Program-made: the position numbers and the translations under genes
DNA from: Girardia tigrina
Taxonomy: Eukaryota
NCBI GenBank assembly: GCA_001938485.1
Contig: MQRK01211884.1
Location: forward strand, 1 to 64,000
Direction: 5' to 3'
DNA: 64,000 bases
The notes under the pieces: model-generated
Seen by the model: the letters and a program-made list of their open reading frames with translations, nothing else
Database searches by the model: none
What the model was told of the DNA's origin: nothing
Part shown: piece by piece, positions 1,969 to 4,900 of the stretch
Position numbering within the stretch: the stretch's first letter is position 1
Layout of the letters: every line of letters starts with the position of its first letter

Positions 1969-4900
1969 GTAAGGAATCGAGATAATTGTCGTAATTCTCT
2001 AAATAATCTATTTGCTTTAAAGGTCGGTGAGGATATTATTGAGAGTGTTTATGTGAGTTCGATTATTATCGGTTCGATTGCTTCAAACAAACACATTTGT
2101 CGATTTCTTTGATTATTGTAACTTGTTGTTTTTGTTTTTAGAGCCACAATGAAGTAACGATCGAAGTGAATGCGGTGGATTTAGTCGACGAGAAGCTCGA
2201 TTCGTCACATTTCGAATTGTTGCGCGTACTTGGCCAAGGCTCTTTCGGCAAGGTCTATAGATTGTTTGATCGATTAGTTCAATATATTTTATTAAATTTT
2301 ATAGAAAACTAAGTATTATTAACGATTTTATTTGTTTTAATTTAAATTTTTGATTCCATAAAAGCAAAATAAGATTGATCTTCCAAAAATAGTAATCCCC
2401 GCTGTTTCGCGGATTTTCAATAAATTGTTTTTGGTACCGTAGCCTTTGGGCCGTGGGTGCACTCAATTATGGACAAGCATATGGCTTGGGTTTTGCATAT
2501 ATATTTGAGTGTCTCAGTAGGCAAGGAAGCTGGTGGTGCCTCTCTCCTCTCCAGGTATGGATGGCCGTTGCCTCCAAGGAGCTCATCCGCCCTTTGCCAG
2601 GTTTTGTTTTTCATCCTGCTAGGTGTCCACACACTTCTTCACCCAGATTGCTCTGGGTGAGGCAGCCAGTTTAGTCGTCAACTATTCGACCATGGGACAG
2701 GTATTACAGGTTTACATGGTACCTGTAGCAGACAGATTGCCTGACCTGACCTGTAGTCAATGGCCCAGCCATTTTCCTATCGGTCACCCAAATAAGTACT
2801 AATGTGGCCGTTGGTTGCTTGACTTCGGAGATCCGACGAGATCCGACGTACCCGACTGCGGCCATTGACTACTTCAATAAATACTTCTTTTTTAAAAATG
2901 TATAATAAATAATAAAAAAATTTCGTACTGTTTTTTGTGATTTTTTATTGTGATTGTAATGTATAAAAATATATAATTAAAATAAAATATATGATTAAAA
3001 TAAATATAGCGCCCCTACTTCGTGGATTTTCACTTTTCGCGGGTGCTCCTGGAACGCATTAATAGCGATAAGTGAGGGATTACTTTAATGCCATGCTTCT
3101 TCCTAAATAGAATGACTTCAGGTGTTTCGTCCTTTGAAAGATCGAAAAGTTTCAACAAAAACCATGAACGGTAAATCTGTATTAAATTACATAAAATTTC
3201 AAAATAATAATTAACAATAATAATAAATGCAAATATAAATATTATATTAGCTATAAATTGTCTTTTACAGCTTTCAAAACCAATTATATCATTAATTATT
3301 TTAAATTATACAAAATTAATTCCCAAACTAAAAATACTTAAACAATGACATTATACTTATATAAATTATTTATGAAATTAAAATGATAAAATTATTTATT
3401 ACATATTATTATCATCAGCAAAATTTCTTTATTAGATTAATTACATGTTTCGTTCTAAATAGAACGTCTCCACATGTTTGGTTCATTAACCCTTCAAGAA
3501 TGGACTTATTATATTTAGTTTCTCAAAATTTCTAAACGTTTTAAAATGAGATTAAGGTCTCATTCTTAAGAGAATTGAACTCTTCGCATTTTTATATGTG
3601 AAATGAGTAAATCTGGGTAAAGGTTTTATGTTTCATTTTCCATGGTTGATGCAATTTTGATACAAAATTCAAATAAATAGAAACACACTCACATTTCGTC
3701 CATATTTATTCCATTCTTTTTATTAACTTGCTTTCTATATATATATATATGTGTGTGTATGTATCCATGGAATTTAGAAACCTATTTTTGAAGGCCTTCT
3801 ACTCAGTCAATTTTCTCCAATCTTTGCACACTTACTCATTCTCGATGACAATGAATGATAATGTGAAATTTTGATCGAAAAAAACTTTTTAAGATCCCAA
3901 AATGAGAGAAAAAAACGGAAAATTCGGAGTTCCCGAACAATATTAATTGCAAGATATCTACTTATAAATTAGAAGTAGTTTATATTAATTTTTAATGTGA
4001 TTTTTAAATTAAAATTTTTTAAATCTTAAATTTTTAAATTTTAAAAACTTTGTTGGCAAAGTTGAGTTTTGTCTGTATAAAGAATGGATATAAAAATTTT
4101 AATTTTTTGATTTACTAGTTCATTGTATTGAAATAATGTATTTAGAAATATTTGTAATATATTGTAATAAGTATATTTGTAATAAATAAATTTTAATAAA
4201 TATACTTTTAGTATATTGTATTTCAATATTTCAGAATCAAGATGTTTTTCCCAAAAAAACTCTAAGTCTAAAAAAACCAAATAAGCTAACAAAATTTGAT
4301 TAATTTTGATTAAAATTAAATAAACTGAAGTTTTCAATCAGATTGTTGTAAAAAACCGTTATAAAAGATTTATGAACCCAGCTAAAGAGATGAGGAAAAA
4401 TAAAAAGTATGAAAAGAATAAAAGGATTTTAATGATGGTTTGGATAATGACGATTAGAAATTGTGAAAGTGCCATATTCTAAGTTTTTTTTGTATAATTT
4501 AAACATCTGTTGATTAATGGCTTTGATAATAAATAATTTGAAAATTTTCTGTCTAATCAAAGGTGAATAGGCTTTCCTCGTTCAAGTCTAAAGATTATGT
4601 ACGTGGGTACGTCAATATAGTGTTCCAATTTTTGTCATTGATGCCACAATTCGTATATTAGAGGGACATATTATCATCTTTGTAATCGTATTAGTGAGCA
4701 CACACATCCAAGTCGAAAGACTAAAATCTAAAAATTTGGTTCCGTGTCAGACGAGTCAGTCAAATTAAAAGGTGAGTTATCGATTTTGATTTCGCATTTC
4801 GATACTCATTCGGAACGGCAATATTGTGAGTCATTATTGATCAGACATCGAAACCATTTATAAATGTTCTAAATGGAAATTGGAAAGCTTTCGCAATGTT

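Follow-up and report, generated by a model that had tools for sequence, protein, structure and literature searches.

The stretch of Girardia tigrina DNA analysed here (64 kb, hereafter the window) carries on its minus strand a GC-rich insert of 447 bp at 2426-2872, flanked by identical 10-mers at 2416-2425 and 2873-2882. A 447-bp insertion with a perfect 10-bp target site duplication (TSD) had been predicted originally, and both the coordinates and the repeat were verified. The single match to the Rfam model RF00001 (5S rRNA) between positions 1500 and 4000 lies on the minus strand at 2755-2869 and scores 52.3 bits (E 1.8e-9; gathering score 38 bits), which bears out the 5S-like head proposed for the insert. 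The window copy also contains a perfect 13-bp inverted repeat with arms at 2753-2765 and 2860-2872; a repeat comparison found no long direct repeat in the element, which has one head only and a LINE tail. No second copy of the 5S-headed SINE occurs in the 64-kb window. The parts of the insert and its borders are as follows.

2426..2872, minus strand: whole SINE copy, young subfamily, 96% identity to the family consensus
2873..2882: target site duplication on the element's 5' side, direct repeat
2870..2872, minus strand: 3-nt 5' extension ahead of 5S +1, complementary to the element's own positions 118-120
2755..2869, minus strand: head from the host type-1 5S rRNA gene, lacking the 4 nt of host 11-14 (loop A), from the Rfam match and comparison with host 5S
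2777..2824, minus strand: internal Pol III type-1 promoter region (box A, intermediate element, box C), corresponding to host 50-97
2753..2765, minus strand: 3' arm of the 13-bp helix I (5' arm 2860-2872), whose foot is the family's 5'-truncation hot spot
2751..2754, minus strand: short linker of putative terminator origin, resembling the host T4 terminator with one T changed in the old subfamily
2482..2750, minus strand: body, taken from the RTE-type LINE RTE-B at its 5' end, covering the 5' UTR and running past the likely start codon
2433..2478, minus strand: tail, the 3' end of LINE RTE-B, 85% identity, E about 1e-9
2426..2432, minus strand: short A tail, A7 in most copies, with one substitution in the window copy
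2416..2425: target site duplication on the element's 3' side, direct repeat; in a contig of run X1, 2424 is joined to 2888 and the target occurs once

Host 50-97 is what we take to be the extent of the box A, intermediate element and box C region. The tail junction at 2478 also appears as loose contig ends in runs X1, X3, X8 and X13.

A dispersed family and its partner LINE

The copy-number check suggested with the original prediction was made as a search of the whole assembly (1.43 Gb in 255,254 contigs), which returned 3658 candidate matches to the SINE. The 40 of these 3658 that were scored were all near full length and, the self match apart, 92-94% identical. A 22-nt motif of the tail occurs exactly 248 times in the assembly and its reversed control not once. 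As this motif is intact in 13 of 25 and 3 of 11 near-full-length unique copies, the assembly holds roughly 500-600 young-subfamily tails, some of them haplotype duplicates. The flanks of the copies are mutually unrelated, and contigs spanning head, body and tail were also found in sequencing runs under the coded labels of organisms A, B, C and D, the RNA status of these runs being a guess. Runs X8 and X18, which have few contigs, and run X21, with short partial matches only, were left out of account here.

The pattern of insertion is equally informative. A TSD of 7-15 nt borders 48 of 93 unique copies, against 1% of 600 mismatched (shuffled) flank pairs; the remaining 45 had none under the same 7-15 nt rule. 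The 3' end is constant across copies, with a short A run behind a fixed motif. The tail-selected sample, for which 60 loci were fetched from 100 places among the 248 tail matches, comprised 89 loci that collapsed to 72 unique copies, and exclusion of 12 that lay in several pieces or next to a gap left 60 clean copies, 16 of them full length and 44 truncated at the 5' side. Variable TSDs, a fixed 3' end and variable 5' truncation are the footprint of target-primed reverse transcription (TPRT). Alignment of 62 long copies, with one duplicate dropped, separated a young group of 47 rows from an old group of 10 rows, with four intermediates, and the mean distance to the respective consensus is 4.6% in the young and 13.7% in the old subfamily.

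Matching of the 3' tail to LINE 3' ends, likewise suggested at the outset, led to a LINE of the same genome, RTE-B, the last 50 or so nucleotides of which match SINE positions 394-446 at 85% identity in 20 of 30 RTE-B loci. The 5' end of the same LINE matches SINE positions 123-390 (86%, E 4e-76). With a LINE-only query, the stretch corresponding to SINE 123-390 was recovered in 24 of 30 loci, 15 of which start exactly at SINE position 123 and none of which has 5S ahead of it. A BLAST-type search with the tail had returned SINE copies only among the 30 loci examined; it took an exclusion pattern, with 9 matches, and a search for PF00078, positive in 4 of 30 loci, to reveal RTE-B, whose 5' and 3' parts are linked through the overlapping copies L312-L316. 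The discovery of dispersed, TSD-flanked relatives together with a LINE partner confirms that the insert is a 5S-derived SINE, as had been claimed.

RTE-B is about 3.3 kb long and encodes an AP endonuclease (PF03372, PF14529) and a reverse transcriptase (RT; PF00078) in a single APE-RT reading frame that lies close to its 5' end. None of the copies examined has this frame intact, the longest open frame being 448 aa; a search for a ribozyme at the RTE-B 5' end found none, and the PF20049 / DUF6451 profile matched nowhere, controls included, which makes this last result uninformative. Its anatomy, rather than an RT tree, would place RTE-B in the RTE clade. RTE-B copies are mostly 90-96% alike, and the LINE is similar in age to the young SINE. 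The tail of the young SINE differs from that of RTE-B in having A7 in place of an A/GAA run and in two substitutions; because the young tail has drifted in this way, a related LINE outside those sampled could be the actual mobiliser of the young SINE.

The head beside the host 5S gene

The Girardia tigrina genome contains two types of 5S gene (L031-L036 against L037, L039 and L041), which stand nine two-sided compensatory pairs apart and score 104-108 bits (type 1) and 91-100 bits (the divergent second type) with RF00001. The SINE, to judge from sequence, is derived from type 1. The original prediction had described the head as far from canonical 5S, which holds against the Rfam consensus but not against the host gene, with which the window copy agrees at 97 of 119 positions, the young consensus at 87% and the old consensus at 95%. 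The sequence of helices I and III in the SINE head is already found in host type 1. The swapped pair in helix III, taken originally as a compensatory change, is the same in the host gene, and the perfect 13-bp stem said to have replaced helix I is indeed present, but 9 of its 13 pairs already exist in host 5S. These are therefore not compensatory changes of the SINE; it had been allowed from the start that identity with the host's own 5S would make the covariation simply inherited, and for helix III and helix I this identity is found. Covariation in a SINE head thus needs the host's own RNA gene as its reference, not the Rfam consensus.

What is new in helix I is its length, which has grown from 9 to 13 bp through the change U109G (giving a C10-G109 pair) and through the 3-nt 5' extension, which pairs with the element's linker. 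The extension matches the upstream flank of none of 11 host 5S loci. In predicted folds the probability of helix I is close to 1 for every prefix of up to 420 nt and for pair spans of up to 300, but falls to 0.05 in the unconstrained full young RNA, where an alternative 5' pairing is better by 3.7 kcal/mol. In the alternative favoured by that unconstrained fold the young 5' end (positions 1-6) can pair with the 3' tail, via a change missing from both the old subfamily and the LINE, an arrangement that may be due to chance. A candidate compensatory change from A-U to G-C at the end of the stem, between the subfamilies, was suggested by the consensus sequences but rejected, since in the copies inspected the 5' base of the old subfamily could also belong to the TSD or be untemplated.

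The foot of helix I is also where truncated copies accumulate. Eight of the 44 truncated copies start at positions 116-122, a count attained by the best 7-nt window once in 5000 uniform simulations (P about 0.0002); this figure is to be read with a uniform null, BLAST starts that may shift by 1-2 bases, and a sample picked by tail identity. Positions 316-317, behind a second predicted stem, are the start of five further truncated copies (corrected P 0.058). No diagnostic changes unite the copies beginning at the helix I foot, most of which have TSDs of their own; a headless subfamily was considered as the cause and rejected, with no shared diagnostic changes among 11 copies. We lean towards a reverse transcriptase that stops at a helix I stem formed in the RNA as the source of the hot spot; alternatively, the RNA may be processed at the 3' end of its 5S part. 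In its lengthened form, helix I is probably present in the RNA and causes the RT to stall, which does not imply selection on helix I. The hot spot bears, in a modest and testable way, on the limits that RNA structure sets to LINE reverse transcription; a search of the literature on RT stalling at SINE stems found no direct description.

A more ambitious reading would have the stem itself selected. The 5S junction would have been dismantled and helix I rebuilt as a 13-bp self-complementary clamp, with the extension perhaps supplied by cDNA fold-back. The clamp would form in the retrotransposing RNA firmly enough for the RT to stop at its foot and so mark the genome, and it would have been retained despite its cost in full-length copies because it shields the triphosphate 5' end or keeps the head insulated from the LINE-derived body. 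All 13 pairs are Watson-Crick, no helix I base is changed in either consensus, the extension is unlike the host 5S upstream flanks, and the clustered truncations lack shared diagnostic mutations, all of which suits such a clamp. Yet a 3-nt match arises by chance one time in 64 and was spotted after the fact, the 18 unchanged helix I positions are unremarkable given 11 substitutions in 115 nt, and no copy has a clearly longer fold-back. The stem moreover appears to cost the element full-length copies, and the full young RNA prefers the other 5' pairing. We therefore regard selection of a terminal clamp as rather unlikely, both as a property of the stem and as the full sequence of events; if it did hold, genomic truncation points would be a natural in vivo structure probe of SINE RNA.

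The remainder of the head was assessed with 37 standard eukaryotic 5S pairs (in the numbering used here), all 37 of which are formed by host type 1. Relative to that gene the old consensus has the 4-nt deletion (host 11-14) and two substitutions, and the young consensus the same deletion and 11 substitutions, of which two keep a pair as a wobble, three break a pair and the rest fall outside the 37 pairs. There are no two-sided compensatory changes in either subfamily, against the nine between host types 1 and 2, which indicates that the pair test can detect covariation where it is present. The three broken pairs compare with 5.4 expected under a uniform model or 4.8 under the copy spectrum (P 0.12 and 0.21, respectively, with the low power that 11 substitutions allow). 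The window copy has broken or lost 8 of the 37 host pairs without compensating any of them, so that the head can no longer be called intact in its 5S fold.

This pattern bears on the proposal that the head RNA is selected as a mimic of 5S, binding TFIIIA or uL18 or docking on ribosomes to catch the LINE protein. Loop A, which TFIIIA also reads, is deleted, with loss of pairs 14-65, 16-62 and 17-61, and the predicted probability of helix II in the host register is 0.01 in the SINE as opposed to 0.92 in the host. The flank of loop E, described as a TFIIIA contact in the available part of PMC4511217, is altered by U102A and A103U. The best-preserved region is helix III with loop C, where all six pairs are kept (two as new wobbles) with one loop change; this is the main uL18 site, to go by the title of a work cited in the accessible text of PMC4488245. 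Its retention, the broken pairs being fewer than expected, and a predicted fold of the isolated head that still has helices I, III, IV and V all speak for mimicry. Against it stand the lack of any two-sided compensation, pair retention that falls short of significance, the loss of loop A and of the helix II register, the altered loop E flank, the disappearance of the T4 terminator, and a head diverging as fast as the body: old and young differ at 9 of 115 nt in the head and at 26 of about 270 nt in the body, similar rates that place the head under no special constraint. Selection of the head as a 5S mimic is consequently improbable, and the selection on RNA folding inferred originally finds no backing in the zero two-sided changes, the missing loop A and the broken helix II register. 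The box A- and box C-like motifs were correctly said to persist, as the promoter region (host 50-97) has three substitutions in the young family consensus and none in the old. We thus have considerable confidence that the 5S-like fold of the head is inherited and decaying, and that the head serves chiefly as a DNA promoter.

Origin of the element

On the evidence of sequence, the element is very probably a dispersed non-coding SINE composed of a host 5S gene and the 5' and 3' ends of an RTE-type LINE from the same genome, likely transcribed by Pol III from the internal promoter that it retains and likely copied by the LINE through TPRT. The old subfamily lies nearer than the young to both donors, in the head (95 versus 87%) and in the body, where identity to the LINE 5' consensus is 92% for the old and 89% for the young. 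The family may have begun when an internally deleted (bipartite) LINE RNA was fused behind 5S RNA, either through a template switch or through insertion downstream of a 5S gene. What follows the 5S end in the old subfamily resembles the host terminator with one T changed, and no T4 run is present on the transcribed strand of the SINE; a change of one T in a host-like T4 terminator would have permitted read-through. Pol III is said, from work of Sakonju and colleagues in 1980, to measure its start from the internal control region. The 4-nt deletion in the head would then have shifted the start upstream by some 3-4 nt, in keeping with the 3-nt extension found in most full-length copies; it is present in 25 of them and is their commonest start. 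The LINE protein would recognise the SINE tail and copy the RNA with its endonuclease and RT. No SINE transcript was seen, the runs labelled as RNA consisting of contigs of guessed RNA status.

Three chimeras of 5S with other LINE 5' ends (L039, L044 and L047) demonstrate that 5S-LINE fusions do arise in this genome. The same chimeras would favour a one-off 5S/LINE retrocopy or a 5S pseudogene in place of a SINE family, a reading whose likelihood is negligible given hundreds of copies with the same two junctions and their own TSDs and two subfamilies of different age (4.6% and 13.7%). The SINE is a clean example of a published route of SINE birth, in which a small-RNA head is joined to an internally deleted RTE LINE, and the presence of both donors, of old and young subfamilies and of unrelated 5S-LINE chimeras in one genome makes each step readable.

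In L039, L047 and L060, nearly the whole host 5S is joined straight to LINE 5' ends, and these joins look like one-off chimeras. L060 is in two parts, 1488-2460 (minus) and 2651-3375 (plus), so that 5S, 5' UTR and endonuclease are inverted relative to linker and RT, as in twin priming.

Known elements and surrounding sequence

The Girardia tigrina element is a medium-copy SINE3 of the bipartite RTE type, a design that is already published. A 5S head with RTE 5' and 3' parts is described for CoeSINE5, HaSE3 and SINE-1_Pmo in the available text of PMC5786205. CoeSINE5 (coelacanth) and SINE-1_Pmo (python) share the combination of 5S with a bipartite RTE, as far as the accessible portion of that source goes (PMC5786205). 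The likeness is by description, and the Girardia tigrina SINE has a separate origin in its host's own 5S and LINE; in contrast to these two elements, as they are given there, it is 446 nt long rather than 225 and 241 nt and takes the extreme LINE 5' end, about 270 nt of it. Its partner LINE is present in the same genome at 85-92% identity. HaSE3 and its partner HaRTE1 (Helicoverpa armigera) likewise combine a 5S head with boxes A, IE and C and a piece of RTE 5' UTR, and HaSE3 has some 43-50 nt of its 3' end in common with the RTE partner, according to the parts available of PMC3272025 and PMC5786205. These same parts present HaSE3 as a low-copy chimera with a tRNA SINE, whereas the body of the Girardia tigrina SINE is the LINE 5' end directly and the family numbers hundreds of copies (PMC3272025, PMC5786205).

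Among planarians, an expansion of LINE/RTE and SINE/5S is reported for Dugesia in the accessible part of a preprint (bioRxiv 10.64898/2025.12.11.693146), where SINE/5S is an annotation at class level, given there without anatomy, partner or structure. The 5S-containing TRIMs Cassandra and Ajax also use a 5S-derived Pol III promoter in a non-autonomous retroelement, and in Ajax it is the promoter rather than the fold that is retained, according to the available text of PMC10886601. Cassandra and Ajax, as portrayed there, have LTRs and a primer binding site, unlike the Girardia tigrina SINE, which is without long direct repeats and has variable TSDs and a LINE tail (PMC10886601). A literature search, with Repbase, Dfam and SINEBase outside its scope, found no paper describing this SINE family.

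A second LINE, RTE-A, which is the one joined to 5S in L044, was tried as partner and rejected, the best matches of its 3' end to the SINE tail having E > 1 in 20 loci. RTE-A starts with an HDV-like ribozyme (L066:2055-2138, L074:1499-1582) that reaches about 33 bits with RF00094 (E 0.14-0.2), under the gathering score, and most RTE-A copies begin at the first G of this motif. The same upstream sequence is found in 15 of 29 RTE-A copies (L065-L094), possibly including haplotype duplicates; in L072 it translates to a GIY-YIG-like motif of a Penelope nuclease. Only one of 30 RTE-A copies has 5S ahead of it.

Within the window, the SINE occupies, in antisense orientation, part of the intron that follows a kinase exon at about 2142-2252, which from its glycine-rich motif we take to be RSK-like; a contig of run X3 covers this exon and then continues with other sequence. 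Around the SINE, 2391-3084 probably forms a small inverted-repeat element with imperfect terminal repeats of about 20 nt, and the flank at 2880-3100 is repetitive in run X1. The X1 contig with a single target copy may represent a paralogue of the 2391-3084 element or an empty allele. Elsewhere, translations judged by eye reveal decayed fragments of RTE-like RT, Penelope-like and Tc1/mariner-like transposase sequences at 5900-6900, 37000-40800, 53000-53400 and 60000-63250.
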